Shown here: piece by piece, positions 31,598 to 52,792 of the stretch | Position numbering within the stretch: the stretch's first letter is position 1 | Layout of the letters: each line of letters opens with the position of its first letter | NCBI GenBank assembly: GCA_024281995.1 | Contig: JAMWZW010000008.1 | Location: 29,806 to 93,805, forward strand | Reading direction: 5' to 3' | From: Nitrosomonas sp. | Lineage (GTDB): Bacteria > Pseudomonadota > Gammaproteobacteria > Burkholderiales > Nitrosomonadaceae | DNA: 64,000 nt | Notes under the pieces: generated by a model | Seen by the model: the letters and a program-made list of their open reading frames with translations, nothing else | Databases searched by the model: none | Told to the model about the DNA's origin: nothing | Program-made: the position numbers and the translations under genes

Positions 31598-31599
31598 AA

Positions 31600-34450: not shown

Positions 34451-34515
34451 TGAGTTGCTAGATCAGTGCGAGACTGATGACGTTACGGTAATAGGGATTG
34501 GATAGCAGGAGAACA

Positions 34516-36593: not shown

Positions 36594-37067
36594 TTATTTA
36601 ATTTCAGTATGTTTCAGTAATTTGGTTACGAGTTGATGAAAAACTTCTTTGGGATCCGGTTCGTGTTGAGCGGATGGATTGGATGCCATAGCATTTTGCT
36701 CAGCAGCAGCAATTTTTTCATCGGTAATATTGCGGCAAAAATCGCGGAAATTATTCCAATCCGTGTTGTATTCGAGTAAATTTTTTTGCGGGATAAAAAC
36801 ACGAAAAACCTCAAAATTTTGATACATTTCCGGCAGCCTGGCCGTAAGGTAATGGTTGATATTTTTTGGCCAGCGTTTATGCTGGGGGTACATGTCGGCC
36901 AATTCAATTTCGATCGTAGCACGAAAATTTTCGATGGCCATAGCACGGCGCTTACGATTAATAATATCCACCATAATGGCTACTATTCCTGCAAAACCCA
37001 ATAAGAAAAAAGGCCACAGCGGAACAGTTTCAAAATATCCTGAGATTTGATCAATATATTCGTTCAA
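36594..37067 (-). CDS. hypothetical protein with N-terminal TM anchor
   Basis: 157-aa ORF with one hydrophobic helix; divergent from the sigma-54 operon. Confidence 0.65.
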   Translation of the reverse strand: MNEYIDQISGYFETVPLWPFFLLGFAGIVAIMVDIINRKRRAMAIENFRATIEIELADMYPQHKRWPKNINHYLTARLPEMYQNFEVFRVFIPQKNLLEYNTDWNNFRDFCRNITDEKIAAAEQNAMASNPSAQHEPDPKEVFHQLVTKLLKHTEIK

Positions 37068-37289
37068 GGTCGTCTCTAATCATTTAATACAAAAGGTAAC
37101 AAAAAATCTGCGCCTGACGCAGCATCGCTGCCGTATCTTGCCATAGTAAAGCGTGTGGATCAATACAGGCTTCTACCTGATTTCTGCTGATAAGCATTCA
37201 CAGAGTAGTTGTCATTTCAAGTCCGGCCAAGAATGTATATCAATGTTTATTAGGAATTAATCACTTTATTCGGAATGACAAATTTCGAA

Positions 37290-37309
37290 TGTTCAAAGAA
37301 TCCTGAACA
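37290..37309. promoter_or_regulatory. candidate enhancer (UAS) palindrome for a sigma-54 activator
   Basis: TGTTCA-N8-TGAACA about 200 nt upstream of the -24 element; a second inverted pair TTGTCATT (37209-37216) / AATGACAA (37274-37281). Confidence 0.35.
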
Positions 37310-37509
37310 ACAAGGATTGTGTCATAGGGAGTCATCATAGAGCCGAAAACTTTTTCGCTCATAACAGGGGATGGACCCGGCTTACCGAAATCAATTTCGT
37401 TAATTTTTTTCCTTCGTTTAATTTATTTCCTTTGAGTTCTAATTTTTTTCACTCATATTTTCAGTGGATTAGATATTTTTTGAACGATATGTTGCAACAT
37501 TTATTTTTT

Positions 37510-37524
37510 TGGCACGCGGCTTGC
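37510..37524 (+). promoter_or_regulatory. sigma-54 (RpoN) -24/-12 promoter
   Basis: TGGCACG-CGGC-TTGC, matching TGGCACG-N4-TTGC with exact GG-N10-GC spacing, about 110 nt upstream of the ATG at 37633. Confidence 0.9.
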
Positions 37525-37632
37525 GTATATCAAGATGAAGGAGATTGGGGGTTACACCGATTGACCTTACAGGAGCGTACAACGCTTATTTAACGCAAGT
37601 ACTTGAATAAAAAAATAGTGGAGGGCTATACC

Positions 37633-38325
37633 ATGTATCAGAGCGAAAATACTTTTGAATTCAATCCGGAAATGAGTGGTTTTGAAGCCGAGCAATATGA
37701 AGGTGAACAGTATGAAGGCGAACAATTTGAGCAATTTGAATATGGCGAAGCGGAGTGGGGGGAAGTATTTAATGAAAGTGAGGTAATGGAACTCACTGCC
37801 GAACTTCTGGAAGTTACCAACGAAGCAGAACTCGACCGTTTTCTGGGTAAATTGATCAAGAAAGCCGGTAGTGCCTTAGGTAAAGTGGTGAAATCCCCCA
37901 TCGGTCAAGCAGTGGGTGGGGTACTCAAGGGCGTCGCCAAAAAAGCATTACCGATTGCTGGTGGTGCGCTGGGTGCTTATTTTGGCGGTCCTCTTGGCGC
38001 CAAGATCGGCAGTGGCTTGGCCTCCGCGGCGGGAAGTGCACTCGGACTTGAACTTGAAGCGCTTAACCAAGAAGATCGCGAATTTGAAGGCGGAAAACAA
38101 TTTGTGCGATTCGCCGCTAATACCGTGAAGAATGCCGTAGCAGCACCACCTGCCGCCAATCCTCGCAGCACCGCGCAAGTGGCTGCTAATAAAGCCGCAC
38201 AAGTCTATGCACCCAATTTATTAGGTTCAGGATCGACATCAACCATGCCATCAGCCATGCCAGGTAAAGGGCGCGGAGGCCGATGGTTCCGGCGTGGCCG
38301 CAACATCATCATTGTCAATTGCTAA
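37633..38325 (+). CDS. charge-segregated glycine-zipper protein 1 (unknown function)
   Basis: ATG at 37633 with GGAGGG RBS; EQYEG repeats, ELTAELLEV..EAELDRFLG, Lys-rich amphipathic and Gly-zipper core, C-terminal GRWFRRG. Confidence 0.85.
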   Translation: MYQSENTFEFNPEMSGFEAEQYEGEQYEGEQFEQFEYGEAEWGEVFNESEVMELTAELLEVTNEAELDRFLGKLIKKAGSALGKVVKSPIGQAVGGVLKGVAKKALPIAGGALGAYFGGPLGAKIGSGLASAAGSALGLELEALNQEDREFEGGKQFVRFAANTVKNAVAAPPAANPRSTAQVAANKAAQVYAPNLLGSGSTSTMPSAMPGKGRGGRWFRRGRNIIIVNC

Positions 38326-38361
38326 GCAGTTTCTATACATATATTTACGAGGAGAACTAAC

Positions 38362-39063
38362 ATGCATGATATTGACCGTACACAACTGGAAAGCAACCCC
38401 GAGCTGGAAAATTATGAACATGAGCAATACGAGTTTGGAGAATACGGCGAATATGGTGAAACCGAATGGGGAGGCGAAACTGGTACTTTTAGCGAAGCGC
38501 AAGCGATGGAATTGGCCGCCGAGTTATTGGAAGTCAGCAGCGAAGAAGAGCTGGACCGGTTCCTGGGCAGTCTTATCAAGAAGGCTGGTCAAGTTGCCGG
38601 GAAGTTTATCAAATCCCCGGTAGGTCAGCAGCTTGGCGGCTTGTTGAAAGGCGCGGCCAAGCAAGCCTTGCCTATGGTGGGTAGTGCCATTGGTGGTTAT
38701 TTTGGCGGTGCGGGCGGTGCCAAAATCGGCAGCCAGGTGGCCTCTACCGCAGGGCGCATTTTTGGTCTGGAGCTGGAAGGACTGAGCCATGAGGATCAGG
38801 AATACGAAGCTGCCAAAAGCTTCGTTCAGTTTGCCGGAACAGCCGCAAAAAATGCAGCACTATCACCGCAGGCAGCCAATCCAAGGGCGGTTGCGCAATC
38901 CGCAGTTGCGGCAGCCGCCCGTCAACTTGCTCCAGGTCTCGTTCGCGGTGCTCCGGCTGCAGCGTTAGTTGCATCGGGCAGCGCGTGCCCTTCCTGCGGA
39001 CGGGGTGCCATGAGCGGCCGCTGGATGCGGCGCGGAAACAAAATCATACTATTTGGAGCTTAG
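38362..39063 (+). CDS. charge-segregated glycine-zipper protein 2 (paralog of protein 1)
   Basis: GGAG RBS; alignable with protein 1 throughout (ELAAELLEVSSEEELDRFLG, GLELEGL..EDQEYE, GRWMRRG). Confidence 0.88.
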   Translation: MHDIDRTQLESNPELENYEHEQYEFGEYGEYGETEWGGETGTFSEAQAMELAAELLEVSSEEELDRFLGSLIKKAGQVAGKFIKSPVGQQLGGLLKGAAKQALPMVGSAIGGYFGGAGGAKIGSQVASTAGRIFGLELEGLSHEDQEYEAAKSFVQFAGTAAKNAALSPQAANPRAVAQSAVAAAARQLAPGLVRGAPAAALVASGSACPSCGRGAMSGRWMRRGNKIILFGA

Positions 39064-39069
39064 CCTATC

Positions 39070-40431
39070 ATGGCTGCCACTTCTTACGCCACATGGATGC
39101 TCGAGCAGGAAGCTCGTGCTTTGCTGACCCGGTTGAAACGCGTCAAGCCTTTCGCTTTGCATGAAACCATGCTGCCAGCGGCATCGTTATTACCGGCAGC
39201 GCAAACCGGCATCGAGCGTTACTTGATGGAAGGGCGGCGAGAATTGAGAGGTATGATTCAACGTTACATTGCCTGGTTACGCGGACCATCCGGGCGTAGA
39301 GCCACGCCCGCCCATGCGCAGCGGCTATTCTCACTGCTGCGATTGAGATTCAATGCGGTACTGACACAATTTGATCTATTTAACGATGCACTCACGCAGC
39401 GCAGCGAAAATGAAATCGGTGTCTGGCTTTCCGGACTTGAAGTGGTGTCGGCTGATGCACTCACTATTCCGGGGCATTACTACGAGGTACCGCCAGTTAT
39501 CTGCTACCTCGATCGTGGTGTCGGCGCAGCGATCCGCCGTGCCAGAACACGATTGCCAGGCGGCGGTGAAAATCCGGTAGCGGTGATTCGTGTTCCGCGG
39601 GAACGTATGGTGGGCAGCGGTATCGCTTCTTCTCTGATCCATGAAGTGGGGCATCAGTCGGCTGCTCTGCTTAACCTGGTGAATTCCTTGCGGCCTGTTT
39701 TGCAGGGTATGCAACGAGGCAGTGGAGCCTATAGCAGTACTTGGGCATTGTGGGAACGGTGGATTTCGGAAATCGTCGCCGATTTTTGGTCTGTTGCCCG
39801 CATTGGCATTGCTTCAACGCTCGGGTTGATGGGCGTCGTTAGCTTGCCGCGCGCTTTTGTATTCCGCTTGAACCGGGATGATCCGCATCCGTCGCCGTGG
39901 ATACGCGTCAAGTTGAGTTGTGCGATCGGGCAAGCGCTTTATCCGCATCCGCAGTGGCAACGCCTGGCTCAATTATGGGAATCCTATTATCCGCTGGATG
40001 GATTGGAGGCCGCGCAACAGCAGAATTATCAGGCATTGCAAGCGACTTTACCTGGTTTTGTAGCGCTGCTGATTAATCACAGACCTGAAAGCCTGCGCGG
40101 GCGCAGCCTGGCTGAAGCCTTGCAGGTGCAAAACCGCCAGCCGCGTCGTCTTCAGGCATTGTTCCTAGCGTGGCGGCAGGAACCAGTGAAAATGTATCGC
40201 GCATCACCAGTACTGGCTTTTGCTGTGATCGGTCAAGCACGTGCCGACGGCCGCATGAGTCCGGAGCAGGAAAGCGCCATACTGGGAAAATTGCTCACCC
40301 ACTGGGCGTTGCGCAGTACCTTGGCAGTGTCCGCGGCCTGCTCAATGCAATCAGAACGGCCGAAGCCTTGGCTCACAAACTACTACCAACAAAATCGTTT
40401 TATTAACTATTCACTCAGGAGAATGACATGA
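39070..40431 (+). CDS. HEXXH (gluzincin-like) metallopeptidase-fold protein
   Basis: LIHEVGHQ followed about 40 aa later by WISEIVADFW (E-x-x-A-D third-ligand pattern); no signal peptide. Confidence 0.7.
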   Translation: MAATSYATWMLEQEARALLTRLKRVKPFALHETMLPAASLLPAAQTGIERYLMEGRRELRGMIQRYIAWLRGPSGRRATPAHAQRLFSLLRLRFNAVLTQFDLFNDALTQRSENEIGVWLSGLEVVSADALTIPGHYYEVPPVICYLDRGVGAAIRRARTRLPGGGENPVAVIRVPRERMVGSGIASSLIHEVGHQSAALLNLVNSLRPVLQGMQRGSGAYSSTWALWERWISEIVADFWSVARIGIASTLGLMGVVSLPRAFVFRLNRDDPHPSPWIRVKLSCAIGQALYPHPQWQRLAQLWESYYPLDGLEAAQQQNYQALQATLPGFVALLINHRPESLRGRSLAEALQVQNRQPRRLQALFLAWRQEPVKMYRASPVLAFAVIGQARADGRMSPEQESAILGKLLTHWALRSTLAVSAACSMQSERPKPWLTNYYQQNRFINYSLRRMT

Positions 40432-42596
40432 GTACAACTAGTCGAAGCCGAAAAGATGAAAAAAAGAAACCGGGAATCCTTAGAGTTAATTTATTCGCTG
40501 AATTTTCAGCTACAACGAGAGACCGAGAATTAAAAGGTGCTATCACCAACGCAGCAGTTATCGTCAAAACAAACATGTTTTCGAATAATAAAATTGTTGC
40601 TCAAGATGTGACTGGACAAGATGGATGGGTAGATATTCCTCTCGAATCGGGGGGGTATCGTATAGAGTTTCCTTCACTTCCCGATCAATGGCAGCCGCAG
40701 TCAGGGCATTTAAGTGTCACGGTTGACGATGCTAAATTTAATGAAACAGGACATATTGTCGAAGCGCGTCAGAGTGGACTGGCTCTGGATATACTTACTA
40801 CGGCAGGCGACGATTTTATGCCCAAGCCCAGCTTGAATATCACGCAAGGTAAAGGAATCTGGATAGTAGTCACTGTACCGAACTATTTGCCATCTGTAAT
40901 TCCCGATACCTCGATAAACAGAGGCTTTTTACAAAAAATTCAAAAATCCGAGCACAGGGATAATGTGAGCTATAAGGCTCAAGTAACAGATGTATCGGGT
41001 AGCGGTCCATTTGGTTTTTTTAGCAGAGTATTGCTTAGCGATGATCGTGATGGCCCAGCCGTTATTATGAACGACGAAGCTGTTATTGAAGAAAGTAAGC
41101 AAATTGTTGGTGGCCAAGTCAATACTACTACCTCATTAACACGTACTGAGACCTCTTTCACTGAAGACACGGCATTCTGGACGGCGATCCGCAATAATAC
41201 GGATGCGCTTTCATTCAATAATTATCTTAGTTTTATGAATTGGATCTTTTGCAACCAGTTACCTAAGAATTTGAGCGGTTTTGAAGATAAACGCTTTGGC
41301 AAAAAAAGAGAGGCCTTTGAAAGCGATGAAATAGGTTTATTGAATAAACGCTTTTTGCCTTTTACTGATTCAGATGCCTATCGTGTGATGAAGGCTGCGA
41401 CTGAGGCATTTGTCATGGTGAACTGTGGGGTGTTGAGCGAGGAATTACAGCCGTTTGACTTGGAGTTAGATAAAGCCTATCTCGATAGGAGAGATTTGCC
41501 GTTTCCACAGAACGGATTGAGTAGTGCTTTTAACGATAATTATCTGGTGGGCGTCGATGGCAATGGTAACGTATTGCCCTATCTCGCGGTTATTCGTCGG
41601 AAGTTACCCGATATCAAGATTAAGCTAACTCCTTTCGAAGAGGCGGCTCGAAGAAGTAGATCCAATGCAGTCGATGCGGACGAATGTTTTGGGCTGCTGC
41701 AAGAGAAACTCGCCAATCCTTGCTTGCTCGAGCTCATCTGGTCGTACTGGCACGAAGAAGGCATGTTGGTGCAAACAACTAACGCCATTACACGGCGGTT
41801 CCAGAATGTGCGTTCATCTGCACGTGATCCACTGGTTAACCTGGAAATGGATCCGCTACGGCCGCTCAATAATGTGCTTTGGGGTTATATCCAGGACGAG
41901 CAACATCGCTTGACCGTCAACCGGCGTAATTACGAGTACGATCACCATTACGGTCTCCATTTGGAAGGCAAAGCGGTGCAAAATTTTCGTCCCGCCGATA
42001 CGCGTTCAAAGTTCCTGGAAGCGTTTCATCATTTATTGCGTTTATGTAGCGTATTTTATAAGCAAGACGATGATACAACAATCAAGGCTGATGCTTTTCC
42101 AGTACTCAACGCCCTCAAGGAAATACACTTGATTCTGTCCCAAGGGGCGCACAATCAATTTGGCGATTTACCATCAACGGCTCGCATCGAAATGTTGATG
42201 CAGCAATGGTTGCTGGCTCGGCCGGAGTTCCGGGAATTGTTGCCGACGCGCATTATGGTGGCTTATCCCGAACCTTGGATGGATCGCGTTGACGCGATGA
42301 AAAAATTGCAAGGCTGGACCGATACCAGCGTATTGCATTTCCGCAACTTGGGCATGTTCGGTGAGCAACTTTTGCTTTCCATCCGTTGGGGTCATTGGAG
42401 CGACGAATTCGAGCCTGTCAAAGCGCTCAATTGGGCGCGGTTTTTCCGTCCGCAGGCTCAGGGCTACATTCATGCCTACCGTGCTGCAACCGGTGTTGAT
42501 CTATCGGTTGATTTGACTGCCAATGTGCCCGTGGATTCGACCTTGCCATCGGTATTGTTGCAAAAGCGCCTGGCAAGTCAGCAACGGGCGATGTGA
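40428..42596 (+). CDS. hypothetical protein (722 aa): beta-rich N-terminus plus helical His/Glu-rich C-terminal core
   Basis: Start overlaps the upstream stop (ATGA); long ORF with no recognised named family. Confidence 0.8.
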   Translation: MSTTSRSRKDEKKKPGILRVNLFAEFSATTRDRELKGAITNAAVIVKTNMFSNNKIVAQDVTGQDGWVDIPLESGGYRIEFPSLPDQWQPQSGHLSVTVDDAKFNETGHIVEARQSGLALDILTTAGDDFMPKPSLNITQGKGIWIVVTVPNYLPSVIPDTSINRGFLQKIQKSEHRDNVSYKAQVTDVSGSGPFGFFSRVLLSDDRDGPAVIMNDEAVIEESKQIVGGQVNTTTSLTRTETSFTEDTAFWTAIRNNTDALSFNNYLSFMNWIFCNQLPKNLSGFEDKRFGKKREAFESDEIGLLNKRFLPFTDSDAYRVMKAATEAFVMVNCGVLSEELQPFDLELDKAYLDRRDLPFPQNGLSSAFNDNYLVGVDGNGNVLPYLAVIRRKLPDIKIKLTPFEEAARRSRSNAVDADECFGLLQEKLANPCLLELIWSYWHEEGMLVQTTNAITRRFQNVRSSARDPLVNLEMDPLRPLNNVLWGYIQDEQHRLTVNRRNYEYDHHYGLHLEGKAVQNFRPADTRSKFLEAFHHLLRLCSVFYKQDDDTTIKADAFPVLNALKEIHLILSQGAHNQFGDLPSTARIEMLMQQWLLARPEFRELLPTRIMVAYPEPWMDRVDAMKKLQGWTDTSVLHFRNLGMFGEQLLLSIRWGHWSDEFEPVKALNWARFFRPQAQGYIHAYRAATGVDLSVDLTANVPVDSTLPSVLLQKRLASQQRAM

Positions 42597-43723
42597 GCTG
42601 CATGGCTATGATCAATTTCACCTCGGCGCTATATCTGGGACTGCATCATCCGAGCCAGTTTTTGCAACCCTGGCAACAACTTACACTGGGGGTGCCGGCT
42701 GCGCTTGAAGAACCGCCCGGGGCTGAGGAGGCGGCGGGAGGATTGGCACAGTTACAAGGGTGCGAGCACGGTGTGTTGTTGCCTTCCACGTTGCATCTAT
42801 TCTGGGATTTATTTGCCATGCTGCGCCAACAACCGGCAGCGTTGTTTCTGGATGAAGGAGCTTATGCGATTGCTCGCTGGGGAGCAGAGCAATTTAGTGC
42901 CAAAGGGGGTGATGTTTACACTTTCCGGCACCACGATCCTGAAGCGCTGCTGGTGCAAATCAAGCGGCATGCGCATCAAAGAAAATATCCCGTGGCAATT
43001 GCCGACGGCTTTTGTCCGGCGTGCGGTCATGCCGCACCAGTCGGAGAATATCTGGAAATTGTGAGACGTTTTGGTGGTTTACTGGTGTTGGATGATACCC
43101 AAGCTTTGGGAATTCTGGGTGAGTCGCCAGCGTTGCACAGTCCTTATGGCAAAGGCGGGGGCGGTATGTTGCGCTGGAGTGGAAACTTTGGACCGGACAT
43201 CGTGGTGGGCTCATCACTGGCAAAAGGTTTCGGCGTGCCGGTGGCGGCTCTTGCGGGCAGCAAAAAACTGGTCAAACGCTTTAAAATGGCCAGTGATACC
43301 CGGGTACATGGCAGTCCGCCGTCGGCGGCTGTTATTCACGCAGCCGCTCATGCGCTGACGGTGAACGAGATCCGAGGCAGTTTGCTGCGGCACAGATTGG
43401 CTCAGCGGGTTGTTCAATTTCGCAAAGGACTGGAAGCCATCGGCTGGGATTCCATCGGCGGCTGGTTTCCCGTTCAAACCTTGCGGGGAATCGTTGGAAA
43501 CGCCGCGGTCAAAATGCACCAATACCTTTCCCGGAACGGTATTCAGACAGTATTGTCACGGCCCCGCGATAACGGCGAGGCACACCTGAGTTTTTTAATT
43601 ACAGCGCGGCATAGCGCTGATGAAATTGATCATTGCATCGACATACTGAGCACATTGACGCATAGCATCGACAAGGCTGCAAATCGCAGCGGCAAGTCAG
43701 CGTATTCGGGCTTCATAAAATGA
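42593..43723 (+). CDS. divergent PLP-dependent alpha-oxoamine synthase-like (BioF/KBL/SPT fold) protein
   Basis: INFTSALYLGL, ADGF, LDDTQALG and SSLAKGFG (Schiff-base Lys); GTGA overlap with the upstream stop. Confidence 0.8.
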   Translation: MSCMAMINFTSALYLGLHHPSQFLQPWQQLTLGVPAALEEPPGAEEAAGGLAQLQGCEHGVLLPSTLHLFWDLFAMLRQQPAALFLDEGAYAIARWGAEQFSAKGGDVYTFRHHDPEALLVQIKRHAHQRKYPVAIADGFCPACGHAAPVGEYLEIVRRFGGLLVLDDTQALGILGESPALHSPYGKGGGGMLRWSGNFGPDIVVGSSLAKGFGVPVAALAGSKKLVKRFKMASDTRVHGSPPSAAVIHAAAHALTVNEIRGSLLRHRLAQRVVQFRKGLEAIGWDSIGGWFPVQTLRGIVGNAAVKMHQYLSRNGIQTVLSRPRDNGEAHLSFLITARHSADEIDHCIDILSTLTHSIDKAANRSGKSAYSGFIK

Positions 43724-43746
43724 CAACTATAGGCGAGAGGTGAATC

Positions 43747-46128
43747 ATGAATCAAGAACTGAACTTTGAAACCATACCGTTAGAACTCGCTCCTGAAATT
43801 ACGGGAGAAATGTTCGAGGTGGAAGGCGAGCGAGGAATCCGCCGCTCATTTGCAGGATCTAGAAACCGCAGTTTCCGGCCTGGCGTTCGTCCCGGTTTGA
43901 GACCAAAAGGAACCAAACGGCCGCCATTCTCGCGAACAAGACCTTTCGTAAAGGGGTCGCGGCGGCCGTTTGGAAGTGCTGTCTATGAACCTTATCCGAT
44001 TGCGAGCGAGCCCTATTCCAGTGAACCGGAACCATCCGGCTCAGAACGCACCCGCTGGGTACAGGATTGCTTGAATCAAACGGCGGGAACGCAACTTCCG
44101 GTGACTGGAATCATGGGGCGGGAGACACGCAGCGCCGTGCGGAATTTTCAGCGGCAGCAAGGGTTAAGAGCAAGCGGCATTGTCGGGCCGGATACCGAAG
44201 ATGCGTTGAAGGCGGCATGCACCGGACAAAATGCCGGGGAAAATTCTGAGCTTGAATCGTATATCAAAGAACCTGGTTTTATCGCGTGGTTAACCTGGCA
44301 ACCCAGTAATGAAAATCCGAAGTTATTTACCTGGGATGAAATCCAGAAGCGCGCGCGTGATCGGATTCACGGTGATGTCGGTGTTTATGTTGTTGTTCTA
44401 TTTGAACGAAGAACCATTGGCGGAAAAACCAAAAAAATAATCACCAAAATCCTGAAGGTAGGAAAGGCGATTGATGATTCCTTCAGGCAAAGACTAGAAC
44501 GCGAAGATCACCAAAAAATACGAGCAAAGTATCCGGGAAAAGTTGGATACTATCTGGCCAAAATACAAGCAAGCGGCGCATGTCCCATTCGTGGTTGCGG
44601 TACTGCAATAGAGCATTTGGTAACACGCACCTTGATTCGGGCGCGAAAAATGCTGCCTGAGCATCAGCGGCCTATTGTTCCTATCAAGGCACTCGAGCAA
44701 ATTCAGGTGGCCAACATTCTGCCGAAGCCTTTGGCAAAAAATCTTGGAAAAGCCTATGCTGCAGCCGGCCCCATGGATGTCCGGAAACAAAGAATAGGGC
44801 CAGTGGCAGCTCCAGCCAGCGGCTCCGGTAATTTGATACTGCCGAAGGATGCAATATGGGAACTGGAGTACCCCTTCAGCGAAGCCGAAGAACTGGAGCT
44901 CGCCGCCGAATTATTGGCCATTTCCAACGAAGAAGAGCTGGATCTATTTCTTGGCAAAATGTTCAAGGGAATCGGTAGAGGATTGAAGAAATTTGGCCGT
45001 TTCGTCGGCAAGAAAGTGCTACCCGCATTGGGTAAAGGTTTGAAGGCTATCGGCAAGGTTGCATTGCCGATTGTTGGCAAAGCGCTCGGATCTTTTATTC
45101 CCATACCGGGCGTTGGCACGGCTATCGGAGGGGCTATCGGAACAGCTGTCAGCAACGCGTTGGAGCTTGAATTCAGCGGCTTGCCTGCTGAAGAGGCAGA
45201 GCTGGAAATGGCGCGGCGTTTTGTGCGCATTGCCGCGACAGCAGCCAGACAAGCGGCTTTGGCCAATCCGCATGCCAATCCCGAAGCTATCGCCAATGCT
45301 GCTTTGATAGCAGCGGCTAAAATGCAAGTGCCGAATCTTCCTGTAGCGATTCAAAGAAATTCGGAACTAAACGGTGCGATTAATAATGAATGGCAGACCA
45401 ATAGCATTCAACCCGAACGATCCGATCAGGAAGCGTTTCTGGGCGATGTATGGAACTCCATTAGCACCGGAGCTCGTAAGCTCTCCAGTGGCGTTGCCAA
45501 TATGCTGACAGATTGTGCGCCCATTGAAGATCGCACAAGTTTTACGCCTAGAGATAAGCGCAAAGGGAAGCCGCGCGATATGAGTAAAGTATATGCGCTG
45601 GTGTTGCATCAGACTGCCGGCAATCAAAGGAATACGCCACCCAATCGGTATGACAGTGTCACTGCGCATTTTGTAATCAAGCCAAATGGACAAATACTGC
45701 AATTGCATCCATTGGCAGCTTACCTTAATGCCTCAAATGGGTTTAATGCTGGCAGTGTAGCCGTTGAATTTGCAGGTAATTATCCTGATGTAAAAGGTAA
45801 ACGGTACGTTTATCCGAATGGCGCATCGCCTCAAGGCATTCTGACTGCCGAACAGATCAAGGCTGGGCGCTGTTTAGTGCGTTACCTTGTTAAAAATATG
45901 GGCCTTACCCATATTGTGGCTCATCGGCAATCCAGTGCAACCCGTGCAAACGATCCGGGTCCGGATATTTGGTATCACGTAGGTCAATGGGCAATCAATA
46001 ATCTAGGTTTACGGGATGGTGGGCCAAGTTTTAAGGTTGGTAGCGGCAATCCCATACCGGATATTTGGCGGACGTGGGGAGAAACCAGACCACAACAGCC
46101 TGAACTTGGCGAGGAAATCTTTGCTTAG
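43747..46128 (+). CDS. multidomain protein: PG-binding domain + GIY-YIG-like region + third copy of the charge-segregated domain + N-acetylmuramoyl-L-alanine amidase
   Basis: WVQDCLN...FQRQQGL..SGIVGPDT (PG_binding_1); ELAAELLAISNEEELDLFLG; LVLHQT, TAHFVI, SVAVEF, IVAHRQ, DPG (Amidase_2). Confidence 0.8.
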   Translation: MNQELNFETIPLELAPEITGEMFEVEGERGIRRSFAGSRNRSFRPGVRPGLRPKGTKRPPFSRTRPFVKGSRRPFGSAVYEPYPIASEPYSSEPEPSGSERTRWVQDCLNQTAGTQLPVTGIMGRETRSAVRNFQRQQGLRASGIVGPDTEDALKAACTGQNAGENSELESYIKEPGFIAWLTWQPSNENPKLFTWDEIQKRARDRIHGDVGVYVVVLFERRTIGGKTKKIITKILKVGKAIDDSFRQRLEREDHQKIRAKYPGKVGYYLAKIQASGACPIRGCGTAIEHLVTRTLIRARKMLPEHQRPIVPIKALEQIQVANILPKPLAKNLGKAYAAAGPMDVRKQRIGPVAAPASGSGNLILPKDAIWELEYPFSEAEELELAAELLAISNEEELDLFLGKMFKGIGRGLKKFGRFVGKKVLPALGKGLKAIGKVALPIVGKALGSFIPIPGVGTAIGGAIGTAVSNALELEFSGLPAEEAELEMARRFVRIAATAARQAALANPHANPEAIANAALIAAAKMQVPNLPVAIQRNSELNGAINNEWQTNSIQPERSDQEAFLGDVWNSISTGARKLSSGVANMLTDCAPIEDRTSFTPRDKRKGKPRDMSKVYALVLHQTAGNQRNTPPNRYDSVTAHFVIKPNGQILQLHPLAAYLNASNGFNAGSVAVEFAGNYPDVKGKRYVYPNGASPQGILTAEQIKAGRCLVRYLVKNMGLTHIVAHRQSSATRANDPGPDIWYHVGQWAINNLGLRDGGPSFKVGSGNPIPDIWRTWGETRPQQPELGEEIFA

Positions 46129-46219
46129 TATGCCTGTGAATTATTTTCAATGATTTTTGCCATCCGAGAAAAATTGTTTTTTGTTGAGAATTGCACAAAA
46201 ATCTTAAAGGAGAAACAAG

Positions 46220-46798
46220 ATGACTACCATCTCAACCCAATCAGCGGAGGGTTCACTTGTAATCACGTCAAATGATGGTGAGCTTCCTGCTGCATCCGCC
46301 GTACTGTTGTTGAAAGCCACAAACCCGGAATATAACCAGCCTGTATTACATATCAAACAGGCAGGTGAACGTGGAAGCGCGGCTTCGATCCGGATCGACG
46401 ACCCGAATCCTGATATCGAGTTTGTCGAGACTAGCCCGGATAATCCTAATCCCAATGATCATGGCGCCGGGAAGTACGAGATTGCCGTTCAGTCGGATCG
46501 GCTTCAAATTAATGGCCGCAAAGCTGATGGTAGCCGCTTCGAAACCATCGTCGTGTTTCAGCGGGCGGGAGTAAATTGCGATCCTCTGCGGCCAGAAAGC
46601 GGGGGAAATATCGGTTTTGGTTTTAAAGAAGCCAAAGAGTTTAAAGATTTTGGAGGCGGACAAGGCGTCATCGCGATTGTCAATGTTTGTGTCGCTCCGA
46701 CGAAAAATCTCGCCGGTGCCGGAATTTTATATGTCGAGGACGGGGCGCTCAAATATATGGGATCGAAGGGAACAATAACTATTATTGCGCCAGCATGA
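46220..46798 (+). CDS. hypothetical beta-rich protein with a phage tail-fibre-like C-terminal motif
   Basis: AGGAG RBS; C-terminus GGGQGVIAI...GILYVEDGALKYMGSKGTITIIAPA. Confidence 0.65.
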   Translation: MTTISTQSAEGSLVITSNDGELPAASAVLLLKATNPEYNQPVLHIKQAGERGSAASIRIDDPNPDIEFVETSPDNPNPNDHGAGKYEIAVQSDRLQINGRKADGSRFETIVVFQRAGVNCDPLRPESGGNIGFGFKEAKEFKDFGGGQGVIAIVNVCVAPTKNLAGAGILYVEDGALKYMGSKGTITIIAPA

Positions 46799-46816
46799 AC
46801 GAGAGGAGAGTAAGAA

Positions 46817-48343
46817 ATGTCGACAAATTACGTTTGGCCGCTCAGCAACAGTACGACATCCGATGAGATGAACACTTCATTCGGGCCGCGCATCAATACC
46901 AATCGCTGGGATTTCCACGATGGCATCGATCTGCCGGCCAGTATTGGAACCAAGGTTTATGCTATGCGCGGGGGAATAGTGCATTTCGCCGGGTTACCTG
47001 GAGACCCTGGGGCGGGCAGGTATGATTCCCGTCATGTCATCCTCGAGGTTGATGACCCCAATGACGGATGGATGTATCTTGCTTACCTGCATCTTGACAG
47101 TATTGATGGGGCCGTGATCTCCGGTGCGAATATTGTGCAGGGGCAGGAAATCGGCACAGTCGGTAAGCACGAAGCGACTTATCCACATTTGCACATCGAG
47201 TTTCTCCAGGGAACGCCCGATGCCGATGCGCAAACCAGTCGTCATCCATTGAAGTATCTCCCCTATTCCAACAAGGCGAACTTTACCGCACCGCTAGCCG
47301 ACCGTTTCAATCGCTTCGGGCCACACATGGCAGCGCGTCTGCTATTCGGCGCCAGCAATAGGTCGGAAGGTGATTTGCTGAGGATTGAAGTCGACCTTCT
47401 CAGGGGTACCGGCGTGCTTGCTACCCGCGTCGTTGATTTTCACGATGAAACGACGATCAATAAGAAAAGAGGTAACAGCGACAAGAAAATCTTCAAAAAC
47501 GACATGGGCGTGGAAGGTTACCAAAAATCCCGCATGAACGATCCGGAACGTACACGTGCCGACCTTCACTACGGTATCCTGGTGCGCAACTTACCGGATG
47601 AGTGCGATACCCTCGTGGCTCGTGTTTTCGATATCGGCGGCAGCATGGTCAGCAGTGCGCCAATTCCCGTTCCGGATCAGAATGCAACGAATGAGCTTGT
47701 CTGTTTCGAGGGCGGCGCGATGCCACCCACAGGCTGGGAGCTTGTGACGAGCACGACAGGCAGCGGAACAACGGTGACAAATGATGCCTCTGCTGCATAC
47801 TCCGGTACGCACGGCATGCTCTGCATCGATGACTCCACTACAGAGACGAGAACACAACGGGCAGGTATCGAGTTTACGCTACCACCCGGTCGCTTCGAAT
47901 GGATTGCCGAAGGCTGGTTTAATCCGAATGTGCTGGATTTGGCACCGGATCAATCAATCTTGCTGCTGCATCTCCTGCATGGCGAAAATCTGAGCGTAGC
48001 GGCACGCATTCGCAACGAAGACGGTCAACTGCTCGCAGGAATCGTGGCGAAGGATAGCGACGGCGACTTGAGAGGTTCGAATAGTTCGGTAGTTTCCGGT
48101 GCCATCATTCCCGGCTTCTGGCGCAAGTGGAGACTGCATCTGCTACGAATCGGCACGCGGGAAACGACTGCTGTGCTTTATCTGGACAAAGACGGCGAAT
48201 TGGCAGAGCATGACCGCCTTAACTGGGATTCGACGACCTTTGAACCTCAAGTTTTGCGCGCTGGAATAGGCCGGTCGGAGGCGGGAGGGAAAGCTACTGT
48301 ACTGGTCGATGAACTGCGGATAAGCGAATATCCCATTCCGTAG
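46817..48343 (+). CDS. M23 family metallopeptidase with C-terminal beta-sandwich domain(s)
   Basis: FHDGIDL (HxxxD), YLHL, YPHLHIE (HxH); no signal peptide. Confidence 0.85.
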   Translation: MSTNYVWPLSNSTTSDEMNTSFGPRINTNRWDFHDGIDLPASIGTKVYAMRGGIVHFAGLPGDPGAGRYDSRHVILEVDDPNDGWMYLAYLHLDSIDGAVISGANIVQGQEIGTVGKHEATYPHLHIEFLQGTPDADAQTSRHPLKYLPYSNKANFTAPLADRFNRFGPHMAARLLFGASNRSEGDLLRIEVDLLRGTGVLATRVVDFHDETTINKKRGNSDKKIFKNDMGVEGYQKSRMNDPERTRADLHYGILVRNLPDECDTLVARVFDIGGSMVSSAPIPVPDQNATNELVCFEGGAMPPTGWELVTSTTGSGTTVTNDASAAYSGTHGMLCIDDSTTETRTQRAGIEFTLPPGRFEWIAEGWFNPNVLDLAPDQSILLLHLLHGENLSVAARIRNEDGQLLAGIVAKDSDGDLRGSNSSVVSGAIIPGFWRKWRLHLLRIGTRETTAVLYLDKDGELAEHDRLNWDSTTFEPQVLRAGIGRSEAGGKATVLVDELRISEYPIP

Positions 48344-48348
48344 CCGTC

Positions 48349-49839
48349 ATGTTTGCCACTGCGGATGTGCCAATGAGATTTGCGAATCTATCGTTTGATC
48401 CAACCGCTTTGGCTAGCGCGTACAGCCGGAAACATCATGGTCGCTTTGTGGCGGAGCTGGGGGAGTTTATTCGCTTCCCGAGTATCAGTGCGCAGCCGCA
48501 GCATAAAGGCGATACGCAGCGTTGCGCGGCATGGTTGACTGATCATTTGAAAAAAATTGGCATGGAACGAGTAGCTGTGATTCCTACCAGCGGTCATCCC
48601 GTAGTTTATGCTGAGCACTGCCATGCAGCGGGAAAACCGATGGTGCTGATTTACGGCCACTATGATGTGCAACCGGCTGAGCCGCTGAGTGAATGGCGCT
48701 CGGCGCCGTTCGAGCCGGTGATCCGTGGAGACGATCTTTATGGCAGAGGCGCTTCGGATGATAAGGGGCAGCTTTTTACACATGTCAAGGCATTGGAAGC
48801 ATTGCTTCGAGGCGGTCAGGGGTTGCCCGTTAACATCAAGTGCCTGTTTGAGGGCGAAGAGGAAATAGGCAGCCCCAGTTTGCCTGATTTCATGATTGCC
48901 AACCGGCAGTTACTTGCTGCGGATTGTGCCGTGATATCGGATACGCAAATCCCGGCTGCCGGTCAACCTGCCATCACTTATGCCTTGCGAGGTTCAATCA
49001 ATTTTGAGCTGGAGATCACCGGGCAAAAGCGGGAACTACACTCGGGCGTGCTGGGCGGTGCCATTCATAATCCGCTGCAAGCGCTGTGTGAAATGATTGC
49101 GCAACTACATGATCAGGCTGGACGTATAGCTATTCCTGGTTTTTATGACCGTGTGCGGAGATGGGATATGAAGGAGCGTGCCTACATGAAAAGGGTTGGA
49201 CCGTCTGATGAAAAAATATTACAAGATGCTGGAGCGGCAATGGGTTGGGGGGAACGGAATTATTCATTGTATGAGCGTACTACAATCCGCCCTACTATCA
49301 CGGTAACCGCCATGCATGGCGGATATCAGGGTAGCGGTGTTAAAGCGGCTATCCCGACACACGCTGTGGCCAAACTGAACTTCCGTCTGGTACCAGACCA
49401 GGATCCGCAGGAAATTGATCGGTTATTCCGGGAATATGTCGAACAGATTACGCCTCCGGGTCTGCGGTTACGAGTTCGTACTTTTGCATCATCCCGGCCT
49501 GTACTGATAGGCCGCAGCCATCCTGCAGTAATGGCTGCGGCGCACGCCTATCGTCAGGGATTCGGGACAGCACCGGTATTTTTGCGCAATGGCGGCACGA
49601 TTCCGGTAGTTGGTCTGATTCAGGAAATTTTGCATCTGCCTGTTGTGTTGATGGGATTCGGTTTGCCAGATGACAGGATTCACGGATCGAATGAAAAATT
49701 TCATTTACCCAATTTTTTCAATGGCATTGAGACCAGCATCCGGTTTCTGACAGCAATGGGTCAGAGTCAGCATGCCAGTCTTGTCAGGCGGGATAACAGT
49801 CAGCAGATTCGTAACACAGGAACGTTTTGGGGGCCATGA
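48349..49839 (+). CDS. M20 family dipeptidase
   Basis: YGHYDVQP, GRGASDDKG, EGEEEIGS, IHGSNEK. Confidence 0.92.
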   Translation: MFATADVPMRFANLSFDPTALASAYSRKHHGRFVAELGEFIRFPSISAQPQHKGDTQRCAAWLTDHLKKIGMERVAVIPTSGHPVVYAEHCHAAGKPMVLIYGHYDVQPAEPLSEWRSAPFEPVIRGDDLYGRGASDDKGQLFTHVKALEALLRGGQGLPVNIKCLFEGEEEIGSPSLPDFMIANRQLLAADCAVISDTQIPAAGQPAITYALRGSINFELEITGQKRELHSGVLGGAIHNPLQALCEMIAQLHDQAGRIAIPGFYDRVRRWDMKERAYMKRVGPSDEKILQDAGAAMGWGERNYSLYERTTIRPTITVTAMHGGYQGSGVKAAIPTHAVAKLNFRLVPDQDPQEIDRLFREYVEQITPPGLRLRVRTFASSRPVLIGRSHPAVMAAAHAYRQGFGTAPVFLRNGGTIPVVGLIQEILHLPVVLMGFGLPDDRIHGSNEKFHLPNFFNGIETSIRFLTAMGQSQHASLVRRDNSQQIRNTGTFWGP

Positions 49840-50630
49840 TGATCATTGATTGCCACTGTCATGCCGGAAGCGGCGATGGGTTTACCGGACCCTGGGATAC
49901 GCGGGCGCCATTAGAGGATTATCTGCGCCGTGCCACTGCGGCAGGAATTCAGCGCAGTGTTTTATTTGCCGCATTTCATTCGGATTACGCTGCTGCCAAT
50001 AAAGAAGTGGCGAAAATTGTAGCTAGCCGGCCGGACAGGTTTTATGGATTTGCATTTGTGCATGCGGCCAGAGACCGCGGGCGGGTGCATAAATTGATCG
50101 AAACCGCTGTCAGACAATATGGATTTGCTGGGATCAAAGTGCATCGCCATGATGCGCCGATTACCCGGGAAATCTGTGATGCGGCGAGGGCTTTCGCTTT
50201 GCCGGTACTTTACGATGTGGTGGGAGAAGTATCGGTTTGTGAGTTGCTGGCGCAAGAATACCCGGATGTCAACTTCATTATTCCCCATTTAGGCAGTTTT
50301 GCCGACGATTGGCGTGCACAATTAGGTCTCATTGATCATTTGGTTCGTCATCCGAATATTTATGCGGATACCGCTGGTGTGCGGCGTTTCGATTTGCTGG
50401 AACAAGCGGTGAAACGCGCCGGAGCGGGCAAGATTTTGTTTGGTTCGGATGGGCCATGGCTTCATCCAGGCATTGAATTGGCAAAGATCAAGGCATTACG
50501 CCTTTCACCACAGCAAGAAAAATTGATTTTGGGAACTAATTTGCAGAAATTAATCCATTCTGCGCGACAGTATCGGCCATCCGCTTTATCCGGAAGGCAC
50601 AACACGGCGCCATTCGCTTTTTCCGAATAA
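49836..50630 (+). CDS. amidohydrolase family (Amidohydro_2) protein
   Basis: IDCHCH, GIKVH, IPHLG, ILFGSDGP; the ATG at 49836 overlaps the M20 stop (ATGA). Confidence 0.9.
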   Translation: MMIIDCHCHAGSGDGFTGPWDTRAPLEDYLRRATAAGIQRSVLFAAFHSDYAAANKEVAKIVASRPDRFYGFAFVHAARDRGRVHKLIETAVRQYGFAGIKVHRHDAPITREICDAARAFALPVLYDVVGEVSVCELLAQEYPDVNFIIPHLGSFADDWRAQLGLIDHLVRHPNIYADTAGVRRFDLLEQAVKRAGAGKILFGSDGPWLHPGIELAKIKALRLSPQQEKLILGTNLQKLIHSARQYRPSALSGRHNTAPFAFSE

Positions 50631-50655
50631 AACTCCGCAGACGAAGATAGCGTAA

Positions 50656-52053
50656 TCAATACTCGCTATTTTCCTGGCGTTGCGCTGCCCGGCGCAACTG
50701 TAAGGCACGGTCGGTTACGCCGAGACGTTGCGCGGCGCGTTGTAAATTGCCGTTTGCTTCGTCGACCGCGATACGAATGGCGGTTTCTTCGGTGTCTTTG
50801 CTGATAGTTTTGAGTCCCATGCCGCGGTTCAGCGCGATGCGGATTGCCCGCTCAAAACTCATGTCGCGCCATTCTTTCCAATCTTCAGATAAAACCGGCC
50901 GTTCATCCGGCGGAATACAGCCAACAGTAATAGGGCCTTCACCCGCATAGCGGCACAACATCCGCGCGATTACCTGCTTGAGGTCGCGTACATTGCCCGG
51001 GTATTGCCTGCGTAACAGATATTCTTGCACAGGCTTATCAATGGTGGGCACATTGTGGTTCGTGCAGTTTTTTTTTAGGAAATGATTGGCTAGAGGCAAA
51101 ATGTCTTCAGATCGTTCGCGCAGAGGTGGTAAGCGGCATATATAGCTGGCAATTCGGTAATAGAGATCGGCACGGAATTCGCCGCGTTGAACTTGTGCCA
51201 TGAGGTCGCGATTGGTGGCGCAAATTAATCGGAATGAGGTGCGTTGCCAGGCATTGCCGCCGACACGTTTGTAAGTTTGCTCTTGAATGACCCGTAAAAG
51301 CTGAGTTTGCATGGTCAAGGATAATTCGCCCACTTCGTCCAGAAAAAGCGTGCCGCCGTTTGCGAGCGCGAATACACCATCCCGTGAAGATGCAGCACCT
51401 GTAAATGCCCCCCGTTCATGACCGAAAAATTCACTGCCCGATAATTCCGGCACAATAGTCGTGCAATCCAGAATGACAAGCTCGCCCTTATCGGTGCGAT
51501 TGTCGAGCGAGTGTATGAGATTGGCCAGTAATTCCTTTCCTGTTCCGCTTTCGCCGAGAATTAATACCGATACGTTGGTAAAGCGCGCGACTTCGATCAC
51601 TTGGCGTAATATGGTTTGCAGTGTTTGGCTTGTACCAACCAATGCATTTTGAACAAGCGAAGAATTGAGTAACCGATTGATGGCTTCCCAGCGGCGCAGG
51701 CGGGCGGTGATTTCATGAATGATCAAATTATCTTTTGTGCAAACCAGTACATCAGACGCGCCCGCTTCCATTAATTGCCAGATGGCTTCTCCTGAAATCG
51801 CTTCGTGACAGCAGGCAAGGACTTGTATTTGACCGTTGTGGCTAAGTTCGCATAACTGTTCGCAGAGTTCCGGGGTTACTTTGTTGCTAAAGACGATACC
51901 GGAGTGACTGCAGGGAACGCGATAATCTTGTACTTTGATGCCCTGCTGGGTCAAGAGGTCGATGAATTTACAAATAGTTTTTTCCGAGTACTCTCCGACG
52001 CCGCGAATCCAGACAGTGGTAGGTTCAGATATATCATTAAAGAAAGTATCCAT
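50656..52053 (-). CDS. sigma-54-dependent transcriptional activator (bEBP) with degenerate receiver-like N-domain
   Basis: GESGTGKE, FFGHERGAFTGA, LFLDEVGE, FRADLYYRI and a Fis-type HTH; the ATG at 52053 is preferred (TTG at 52065 is an alternative). Confidence 0.93.
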   Translation of the reverse strand: MDTFFNDISEPTTVWIRGVGEYSEKTICKFIDLLTQQGIKVQDYRVPCSHSGIVFSNKVTPELCEQLCELSHNGQIQVLACCHEAISGEAIWQLMEAGASDVLVCTKDNLIIHEITARLRRWEAINRLLNSSLVQNALVGTSQTLQTILRQVIEVARFTNVSVLILGESGTGKELLANLIHSLDNRTDKGELVILDCTTIVPELSGSEFFGHERGAFTGAASSRDGVFALANGGTLFLDEVGELSLTMQTQLLRVIQEQTYKRVGGNAWQRTSFRLICATNRDLMAQVQRGEFRADLYYRIASYICRLPPLRERSEDILPLANHFLKKNCTNHNVPTIDKPVQEYLLRRQYPGNVRDLKQVIARMLCRYAGEGPITVGCIPPDERPVLSEDWKEWRDMSFERAIRIALNRGMGLKTISKDTEETAIRIAVDEANGNLQRAAQRLGVTDRALQLRRAAQRQENSEY

Positions 52054-52792
52054 AGTATTTAGCAACGAACTGATTGAATTACATCCACGAAGAATCCGGA
52101 AGGGCTCTTCTCATGTTTGATAATTGCTTGCAGTCAGTGTCGCTATACTTGGATTTTTTGATCAGCCGAATTACTTCTTATTAGTATTCAGCAGGTTGTT
52201 ATTGAAGTGTTGTTCAAGCAATTATTTTTTCATTGCATGGCGGTTAATTTCCATGCCTGCAATTTCATTCTAAAGTAAATTACCTTAATCTTGAATAAGA
52301 TTTATGTATTCTTTTAATTACTTCATGATTTCTATGATAGATATATTGGTTAATCCGGATTCTCACTAAGTAAGCAGCACTGATTGAATCTTACTTCGGC
52401 GCTCAATAGGAGGTGGTTTGAGCGCGTACGTTGCTATCTTATAAACTTAATGAAAGTCCGGTTTTAATCTGAATTGGCAACAAATCCCTATACTTGTGCT
52501 AGCGATATTTCCATTCATTGATAATAAAGTTATCACCGAATTGTTTAATTTGAAGTGAGATTAATCACATGTCCTGCAATTTTATGGCATCATCGTTAAA
52601 CAGTTGAAATTTGGACTATTAGAAAATCTATTACCAGTCAAAGTATTGTGGCGATCTGAAGTGGTTGTTCTTACATTTCATCTGATTCTTCTCATATTTG
52701 CATTGACCTGATATGGCTTATTGCGTTATTTTTACCCATTTTTATAATAGAGCCTTTGATGGGTTACAGTTTTTTATTGGTTGGCGATTTTT

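Follow-up and report, generated by a model that had tools for sequence, protein, structure and literature searches.

The 64,000-nucleotide stretch of DNA analysed here (the window, from contig JAMWZW010000008.1 of Nitrosomonas sp.; all coordinates count from its first letter) holds a block of ten co-oriented genes preceded by a sigma-54 promoter and closed by a convergent gene for a sigma-54 activator, together referred to as the cassette. An original prediction, made from the letters of the window, had read this block as a single operon of charge-segregated glycine-zipper (GZ) proteins, processing enzymes and cell-wall hydrolases without export signals, and had proposed it as a candidate undescribed system, possibly a machine for inducible antagonism or programmed lysis in which the shared GZ domain would be a trafficking or assembly tag or a masked membrane-active module. 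An analysis of the cassette, its relatives and its possible function is presented here. Its features are listed below with window coordinates and strand; related loci are designated by L numbers, and the names GZ, HExxH, Big and X refer to proteins of the cassette family.

37077–52695, no strand: whole inserted island, ~15.6 kb, absent from three congeneric genomes
37344–37357, + strand: palindrome 1, CGAAAACTTTTTCG, candidate activator-binding site of the form CGAAA-N4-TTTCG
37386–37399, + strand: palindrome 2, CGAAATCAATTTCG, 42 bp from palindrome 1, with CGAAA...TTCG columns invariant in an alignment of promoter regions (A6)
37457–37472, + strand: conserved A/T-rich block that separates the palindromes from the promoter, with TTTnCAnnnnATT columns invariant in A6
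37510–37524, + strand: sigma-54 −24/−12 promoter TGGCACgcggcTTGC, TGGCAC-N5-TTGC type, GG at −24 and GC at −12
37633–38325, + strand: GZ-a, acidic-head/glycine-zipper protein of 230 aa, with FEFNPE, related to the cargo tag, near its N-terminus
38362–39063, + strand: GZ-b, acidic-head/glycine-zipper protein of 233 aa, N-terminus MHDIDRT, C-terminal GRWxRRGxxIIL
39070–40431, + strand: HExxH protein, 453 aa, HEVGH at residues 191–195, E234 and D238 invariant
40428–42596, + strand: Big, 722 aa, exchangeable N-terminal region (aa 1 to ~240) and conserved all-helical core (~480 aa)
42593–43723, + strand: BioF/KBL-like pyridoxal phosphate (PLP) enzyme of the alpha-oxoamine synthase family, 376 aa, Aminotran_1_2 E 3.3e-10, bioF E 1.2e-21
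43747–46128, + strand: cargo fusion of 793 aa, with FETIPL tag, Arg/Pro-rich tract, PG_binding_1, middle region, GZ-c and Amidase_2
44044–44208, ~44866–45366 and 45586–45963, + strand: PG_binding_1, GZ-c and Amidase_2 domains, respectively, of the 793-aa protein
46220–46798, + strand: 192-aa protein, local accessory, present only here and in L013 (a 98%-identical relative), no tag
46817–48343, + strand: M23 peptidase with long C-terminal extension, local accessory, Peptidase_M23 E 1.1e-15, present only here and in L013
48349–49839, + strand: M20 dipeptidase of PRK08201 type, lineage-specific accessory, NF006053 E 1.3e-156, above cut-off
49836–50630, + strand: Amidohydro_2 metal-dependent hydrolase, core gene, PF04909 E 2.5e-21, DCHCH as the usual HxH start
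50656–52065, − strand: cognate sigma-54 activator with receiver-like N-domain, AAA+ domain with GAFTGA, and HTH_8

Housekeeping genes that are themselves conserved flank the block, which forms a discrete insertion. In three cassette-free Nitrosomonas genomes (L097, L098 and L099, from G421, G425 and G412), the flanking genes, namely the homolog of the open reading frame (ORF) at 36594–37067 on the left and an 88-aa ORF followed by ispA and dxs on the right, lie ~460 bp apart, and homology of the window to these congeners ends near 37076 and restarts near 52696, which sets the island at ~15.6 kb. It extends from the promoter region through the activator's own upstream region. Island genes have a GC content of 46–56% and the flanks one of 44–46%; direct repeats of at least 9 bp were not found at the borders. 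The closest protein matches of the window are in N. ureae and in Nitrosomonas metagenome-assembled genomes (95–99% identity). The cassette is best read as a horizontally acquired, self-regulated unit.

Within it, the ten genes of the + strand span 37633–50630, with spacers of 36, 6, −4, −4, 23, 91, 18, 5 and −4 nt, and start and stop codons overlap as ATGA at 40428, GTGA at 42593 and ATGA at 49836. Inside the block, sigma-70-like promoters and terminator-like hairpins are not in excess; the only two well-placed hairpins are at 37122–37108 (− strand), ending the left-flank gene, and at 50646–50633 (− strand), after the stop codon of the activator. The overlaps described in the original prediction are all present, as are the consensus promoter ahead of the block and the convergent activator with its GAFTGA motif behind it. 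Its domain assignments for the PLP enzyme, the PG-binding/amidase fusion, the M23 and M20 enzymes and the amidohydrolase are likewise matched in Pfam or NCBIfam, and the small GZ proteins, the HExxH protein and the 722-aa protein match no family in either. In agreement with the claimed absence of Sec and Tat signals, no island protein has a signal-like N-terminus or a hydrophobic segment of transmembrane grade.

The cassette is not confined to this genome. A pattern and tblastn scan of 185,579 species genomes, based on the Big alignment, retrieved 494 related loci from at least three phyla. The counts of related loci given below refer to the best-scoring 80 of the 494, mostly from Betaproteobacteria, with 67, 66 or 75 loci entering a given test; these loci were scored by a tblastn survey and by strand-restricted and stop-to-stop scans with hidden Markov models (HMMs). 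Hosts include Nitrosomonas, Nitrospira, Methylococcaceae, Janthinobacterium, Massilia, Rugamonas, Variovorax, Polaromonas and Vicinamibacterales, and further matches occur in proteins labelled Blastocatellia and Actinomycetota and on megaplasmids of Rhizobium, Ensifer and Paraburkholderia. Distribution is patchy, with the cassette in 4 of 401 sampled Pseudomonadota and in 14 of 41 Nitrosomonas species, two of which have in-frame stops; a collection of phage genomes gave no cassette match. The two interrupted copies affect the HExxH gene (G434:C9:4028-5294 and G436:C11:184092-184544) and suggest decay. Elsewhere, some copies have transposases (rve, ISL3), a phage-type integrase or a BrnT/BrnA toxin–antitoxin pair beside them (L004, 184–1417 and 20603–20675; L007, 578–1486 and 8293–8803), which fits mobility of the cassette.

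Gene order is fixed in the 67 complete loci: two upstream GZ domains, HExxH, Big, usually the PLP gene, X, a downstream GZ copy, optional cargo, Amidohydro_2 and the convergent activator. At least one upstream GZ domain is present in all 67 and two in 65, and a downstream GZ copy is found in 62. Co-occurrence in other genomes had been set beforehand as one test of a genuine system, and the genes do co-occur, with their order kept across genera and phyla. The claim that all ten genes form one system holds for the conserved core (two GZ genes, HExxH, Big, PLP, GZ-c, Amidohydro_2 and the activator), and does not extend to the M23 and 192-aa genes, which are local, or to the M20 gene, which is specific to certain lineages (Nitrosomonas, Nitrospira, Vicinamibacterales and one unclassified Pseudomonadota metagenome-assembled genome, L026). 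There is no conserved small gene after the cargo, and the 192-aa gene is absent from L014 and L016 despite the same amidase. The cassette encodes no transporter, and no type VI sheath gene (TssC/VipB) was found in the genome. No account of the cassette was found in the literature searched, full texts included, and the database names are all 'hypothetical protein'; GZ, HExxH and Big match no described family, and the ORFs do not map to any characterized pathway, a mapping that would have refuted the original prediction.

The 64-kb window has 23 matches to TGGC-N8-TGC; of those within the block or ahead of it, the site at 37510–37524 alone resembles the consensus. A site of the same kind precedes the first GZ gene in 58 of 75 related loci, and rpoN is encoded in the genome (C1:735487). 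About 120–165 bp upstream of the −24 element sits the pair of palindromes, whose motif CGAAA-N4-TTTCG occurs twice in the window against 0.18 expected and 38 times in total across 1.5 Mb of related loci. Both palindromes are conserved, palindrome 1 being nearly invariant, amid the otherwise diverged alignment A6 of eight Nitrosomonas promoter regions. In 24 of 66 loci, which belong to several genera, the same palindrome precedes the sigma-54 promoter of the cassette, and pairs spaced by 41–42 bp recur in L013, L016, L086, L059, L069–L071 and L082. These paired palindromes are putative binding sites of the activator. The A/T-rich block at 37457–37472 may be a bend site resembling those of integration host factor (IHF), the consensus of which is WATCAAnnnnTTR.

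The activator itself has a strong Sigma54_activat match (E 3.5e-58), a Walker A motif, GAFTGA and a Fis-type helix-turn-helix (HTH_8). In an alignment of 17 loci, its receiver-like N-domain conserves W (strand 1), G[VL]V[LF] (strand 3) and an AGAxDVLxW stretch; the phospho-acceptor Asp and the usual Lys are both missing, and the cysteines vary. PADLOC matches the AAA+ part of the activator alone, through models of RtcR/PspF type, and no other island protein.

GZ-a and GZ-b share 58% identity, and a third copy, GZ-c, occupies residues ~374–540 of the 793-aa protein (45% identity, E 8e-29), so that the two paralogs and the fused third copy of the original prediction are all recovered. None of them has a match in Pfam, NCBIfam, PADLOC or the PDB; more than 1787 homologs exist, every one named hypothetical, and those among the matches listed are ~60–99% identical across their full length, with no hypervariable core. 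The announced charge segregation is pronounced: the first 60 residues of the two small proteins carry net charges of −19 and −16, and the next 60 are basic and include 12–14 glycines as well as an amphipathic helix, FLGKLIKKAGSALGKVVK, whose hydrophobic moment is 0.68. Across 100 single-domain homologs, the N-terminal part averages −17.8 ± 2.4 and the C-terminal part +10.8 ± 3.3, and the two charges are anticorrelated (Spearman −0.55, calculated without phylogenetic correction).

A maximum-likelihood tree of 60 GZ domains places the downstream copies all in one clade with 100/100 support, and therefore GZ-c of the 793-aa protein is an ancient dedicated paralog and not a domain captured recently. 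The upstream copies divide, in this tree, into a slow-evolving and a fast-evolving type. It is the slow type that begins with MHDIDRT (window 38362–38382), a start found in 85 of 120 homologs (P0001–P0120) from different phyla; such conservation is unusual and suggests that this N-terminus is recognized or modified. Free-standing GZ-c copies begin with CxCxxC, and most of them, like the upstream GZ proteins, terminate in GRWxRRGxxI(I/V)xxG.

The HExxH protein is conserved at the positions that a metalloprotease would need. In an alignment of 21 diverse homologs (A2, 70% mean column identity), H191, E192, H195, E234 and D238 are invariant. The protein has no sequence match in Pfam, NCBIfam, PADLOC or the PDB, and Pfam searches with each A2 member at E values up to 5 yield no consistent family. 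Distant paralogs (25–28% identity) are encoded in other Nitrosomonas at L095 (G437:C116, 7242–13342) and L094 (G438:C7, 5085–13234), where they adjoin proteins with acidic repeats and cationic glycine zippers; in L094, one neighbour is a PG_binding_1/M74 protein and another an 821-aa protein whose amphipathic helix is extremely rich in Lys. As these paralogs again stand beside charge-masked clients, the pairing of HExxH proteins with such clients would be older than the cassette.

Big is a large orphan family. A search of 1.84 billion representatives with a profile of its core matches 1291 clusters at 50% identity, and the 150 matches listed are all strong family members, with no distant annotated relative among them. 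Searching every alignment member in Pfam at E values up to 5 brings up no consistent family for the core, NCBIfam and PADLOC give no match, and profile searches of PDB sequences are negative for Big, its N-terminal region, HExxH, GZ and the middle region of the 793-aa protein. The AlphaFold2 (AF2) model of the core, built on a 21-sequence alignment, is all helices with a mean predicted local distance difference test (pLDDT) score of 42.7. The N-terminal region is exchanged between loci: the type present here is common only to L015 and L086, and another type is carried by L014 and L016, though these are closer relatives and 85–95% identical in most other cassette genes. In some relatives, the N-terminus matches CarboxypepD_reg, SpaA or SdrD_B Ig-like domains, and PT-TG is hit below threshold in 6 of 21 Big homologs (best E 0.021).

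Two core genes encode enzymes of known superfamilies. The PLP enzyme scores 76.9 bits against bioF, where the cut-off is 426, and lies far below every equivalog cut-off; its K211 (Schiff-base Lys) and D168 (PLP-N1 Asp) are invariant and align with their BioF equivalents, and an invariant Gln, Q170, aligns with the His of the DDAHG stretch of BioF, presumably H207. Judged by this score and by this Gln, the enzyme is a relative within the alpha-oxoamine synthase family and not a BioF. The Amidohydro_2 gene was detected by tblastn in most loci that have sequence downstream of the PLP gene.

Cargo genes, for their part, vary between loci, where Amidase_2, Peptidase_M74, NlpC/P60, PLDc_2, trypsin-like and OmpA-like domains are encountered. 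A short N-terminal tag, F[ED]xxP[FLW] (here, for example, MNQELNFETIPLE), marks 40 of 133 ORFs of the variable region versus 4 of 1208 flank ORFs of the same loci, an enrichment of ~90-fold. X proteins begin with an acidic stretch and continue with an Arg/Pro-rich tract; some also have PG_binding_1, and a GIY-YIG-like domain (GxY...YxGxT..L..R...H...E...NQRELE) was detected in 47 of 67 loci. The 793-aa protein joins X and GZ-c to PG_binding_1 and Amidase_2. Its middle region (aa 170–372) matches neither the PDB nor, with filters off, an HMM of the GIY-YIG-like X domain built from 26 relatives, so that a GIY-YIG reading is unsupported for the cargo protein of the window. PT-VENN is hit just below threshold at aa 142–169 (E 0.0011, 19.5 bits versus a cut-off of 20.3). 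An RRSFAG motif in this protein is followed by the Arg/Pro-rich tract with no hydrophobic core, and is therefore not a Tat signal. The acidic start and tract (RSFRPGVRPGLRPKGTKRPP, window 43837–44010, aa 31–88) have the same layout in the X proteins of L037, L040 and L004 (tract RPRPRPRPRPLP), an arrangement reminiscent of the proline-rich antimicrobial peptides that are produced with an acidic pro-piece. PHROG endolysin families match the amidase, PG-binding and M23 domains. The 192-aa protein had been called tail-fibre-like, a label that is not confirmed: Pfam and NCBIfam give no match, a single weak PHROG match is to a family of unknown function, and the 45 C-terminal residues (aa 148–192, 46661–46798) resemble the C-terminal end of a hyaluronidase from Streptomyces koganeiensis, 4ufq (E 4.4e-5). 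Together with the M23 gene, the product of which also lacks the F[ED]xxP[FLW] tag, the 192-aa gene looks like a recent insertion.

From sequence, we infer, with a confidence that falls a little short of even, that the cassette is a sigma-54-gated device for breaching the cell envelope, serving inducible lysis or killing. This reading is favoured because a portable switch, self-masked cationic GZ proteins, a probable metalloprotease and hydrolases with no Sec or Tat route are found together; the inducible antagonism or programmed lysis of the original prediction is compatible with the evidence, and the cargo repertoire and the conserved, compensated charge masking speak for it in particular. 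In the proposed mechanism, a cue would release the activator, the receiver-like domain of which is devoid of phospho-acceptor, and the activator would then bind the palindromes and open the sigma-54 promoter. GZ proteins would be made as self-masked pro-forms in which the acidic head neutralizes the cationic zipper, and the HExxH protein, a probable gluzincin, would remove or remodel the GZ heads, the F[ED]xxP[FLW] tags or both. Unmasked GZ domains, perhaps with Big, could permeabilize the inner membrane, after which the signal-less PG-binding amidase and the M23 peptidase would gain access to the wall or, once the cell has lysed, to its neighbours; in relatives, M74, NlpC/P60, phospholipase D (PLD), trypsin-like and GIY-YIG-like enzymes would take the same route. 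The outcome may be altruistic lysis that benefits kin, abortive infection or the release of antibacterial proteins. The patchy distribution and decayed copies fit an accessory trait that is costly or conflict-related. A bolder version of this scheme, which we hold to be rather doubtful, sees in the three GZ copies, HExxH and Big a self-contained, sigma-54-fired assembly for membrane breaching or export that moves folded signal-less proteins across the envelope and recognizes its clients by the F[ED]xxP[FLW] tag; with the same degree of doubt, such an assembly, equipped with its portable promoter–enhancer–activator unit, would rank alongside a new system of secretion or lysis release.

Several observations weigh against the envelope-breaching reading. 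GZ proteins reach a maximal Kyte–Doolittle score of only ~1.1 over 19 residues and are not classical transmembrane holins, and the anticorrelation of their charges carries the phylogenetic limit given above. The assignment of the HExxH protein as a probable gluzincin metalloprotease is drawn from its motif, and its AF2 model (mean pLDDT 60.6) finds no better match in the PDB by Foldseek than one at E 0.78. Minimal cassettes of Oxalobacteraceae contain a GIY-YIG-like protein and no recognizable wall hydrolase, and no immunity gene was recognized in the cassette, although a weapon of antagonism would require one. The PLP and Amidohydro_2 enzymes, though encoded by core genes, have no role in the proposed model. 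Lastly, Amidase_2 and M20 enzymes can be cytoplasmic enzymes of peptidoglycan recycling, of the AmpD type.

In a quite different explanation, the cassette is a cytoplasmic operon for wall recycling or envelope stress: Amidase_2, M20, Amidohydro_2 and the PLP enzyme would process muropeptides or amino acids, and the GZ proteins would stabilize membranes in the manner of PspA. All proteins of the cassette do look cytoplasmic, M20 strongly matches an ordinary dipeptidase family, and pspF–pspA offers a precedent for control by sigma-54 and a bacterial enhancer-binding protein (bEBP). Against this, PLD, trypsin-like, NlpC/P60, M74, OmpA-like and GIY-YIG-like cargo would be out of place in recycling, M20 and the amidase are not core genes, and a patchy island distribution is unlike that of a housekeeping pathway, which makes this explanation very unlikely. 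Still less credible is the alternative advanced in the original prediction, a cluster of the type producing ribosomally synthesized and post-translationally modified peptides (RiPPs), with GZ precursors modified by the HExxH, PLP and amidohydrolase enzymes. Small tandem paralogs followed by enzymes, conserved N-terminal segments that could be leaders, and Cys pairs near the GZ termini have a RiPP-like appearance. However, 'precursors' of ~230 aa conserved from end to end with no hypervariable core, the third GZ copy fused to enzymes, the absence of a transporter and the lack of any match to a RiPP maturase or RiPP recognition element (RRE) family in Pfam and NCBIfam turn this into a highly improbable option.

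Closer to the envelope-breaching reading, and simply unlikely, is an export or delivery system for polymorphic toxins, in which Big, GZ and HExxH form or service a translocon or particle, the tag and, on GZ-b, MHDIDRT serve as export or loading signals, and the tagged cargo is delivered outside living cells, where it kills competitors. Such a system would account for the ~90-fold enrichment of the tag on variable-region proteins, for modular cargo with GZ-c fused or adjacent to it, and for an exchangeable Big N-terminus that in relatives bears Ig-like domains (CarboxypepD_reg, SpaA, SdrD_B) typical of surface proteins; the weak pre-toxin matches (PT-VENN at E 0.0011, PT-TG in 6 of 21) point the same way, although they are under the Pfam cut-offs. 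Yet the core proteins include no transmembrane segment, ATPase or outer-membrane component, the M23 and 192-aa proteins do without the tag, and immunity genes were not recognized. The absence of a recognized immunity gene would, conversely, suit a module for abortive infection or stress suicide, with the same mechanics as the envelope-breaching device, a trigger consisting of phage infection or irreparable damage sensed via the activator, and a benefit to kin. Tight sigma-54 gating, a sensor domain that is non-phosphorylatable family-wide and a distribution that is patchy and mobile, some copies lying near transposases, an integrase or a toxin–antitoxin pair, are compatible with suicide. But PADLOC matches only the generic AAA+ part of the activator, phage genomes contain no match, and the island of the window lies between housekeeping genes and not in a defence island, so that such a module appears quite unlikely.

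Comparison with known systems places the cassette near several of them. In holin–endolysin cassettes and holin-dependent 'type 10' secretion, as would also hold here, signal-less hydrolases need a lesion made by small co-expressed proteins and the whole is silent until triggered, and the amidase and M23 domains of the cassette match phage endolysin families in PHROG. The cassette differs in that no transmembrane holin or spanin was found, in its small proteins, which are 230-aa GZ proteins with acidic heads, and in its three further orphan or enzyme core genes, its sigma-54/bEBP control and the absence of any phage-genome match. Polymorphic toxin systems, reportedly treated by Zhang, de Souza, Anantharaman, Iyer and Aravind in 2012, resemble it in joining a conserved module to, or setting it beside, varying amidase, peptidase, PLD and GIY-YIG-like domains, with weak PT-VENN and PT-TG matches; the cassette, in contrast, has no known trafficking domain of a secretion system (type V, VI, VII and the like) and no recognizable immunity gene. 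The Caulobacter Cdz system (CdzC/CdzD) consists of contact-dependent glycine-zipper bacteriocins that are small, exported by a type I system and accompanied by an immunity protein. The likeness, drawn from descriptions, lies in side-by-side paralogous glycine-zipper proteins thought to act on membranes, whereas the GZ proteins are not small and the cassette has neither a dedicated type I exporter nor an immunity protein.

For its control, the cassette can be set beside pspF–pspABCDE and rtcR–rtcBA, in each of which one stress operon has one cognate enhancer-binding protein alongside. It likewise has its own adjacent bEBP, with an AAA+ domain matching RtcR/PspF-type models, but the sensor is receiver-like without Asp and Lys, and neither a CARF domain nor missing as in PspF, and the regulated genes are unrelated. 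Gluzincins of thermolysin or neprilysin type have the motif HExxH followed by ExxxD, and HEVGH and E234xxxD238 are invariant in the 21 homologs of the cassette HExxH protein; it differs from them in that no sequence or fold match to a peptidase family was detected, and neither its 39-residue spacing nor its helical context can be assigned.

If the envelope-breaching reading is correct, hundreds of environmental species, among them the nitrifiers Nitrosomonas and Nitrospira, soil Oxalobacteraceae and rhizobia with their megaplasmids, hold an unstudied, tightly gated device that breaks their own envelope or that of their neighbours. This would bear on population crashes and on the release of DNA and proteins in nitrifying biofilms, on interbacterial competition in soil and on the catalogue of exit routes for bacterial proteins, and would give a role to at least three large families of orphan proteins. 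The paired palindromes, −24/−12 promoter and cognate activator would constitute a compact, portable and very tight expression switch. Charge-masked GZ proteins would then mirror, in bacteria, the way in which pro-peptides mask the cationic antimicrobial peptides of animals.

Some additional observations concern the surroundings and relatives of the cassette. The left neighbourhood of the island (26193–36509) encodes a GNAT-like protein, a MobA-like nucleoside triphosphate transferase and other products, and as these genes are kept in cassette-free congeners they lie outside the island. Pfam family PF23135 (TRI4_N) was considered and proved uninformative: it exceeds its cut-off in one homolog (P0078), scores E 0.11 for the window protein and gives no hit in this genome or in ten genomes that carry the cassette, and the papers retrieved for 'TRI4' all concern fungal trichothecenes. 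A reduced cassette occurs on plasmid pBPHY01 of Paraburkholderia phymatum STM815 (L096, 1543793–1567052), where GZ, HExxH (ACC75923), Big (ACC75922), Amidohydro_2 (ACC75920) and the activator are present; a PLP gene could not be detected there, and the sequence just upstream contains no canonical TGGCAC promoter. P. phymatum STM815 is genetically tractable, and rpoN transcriptomes have been published for it.

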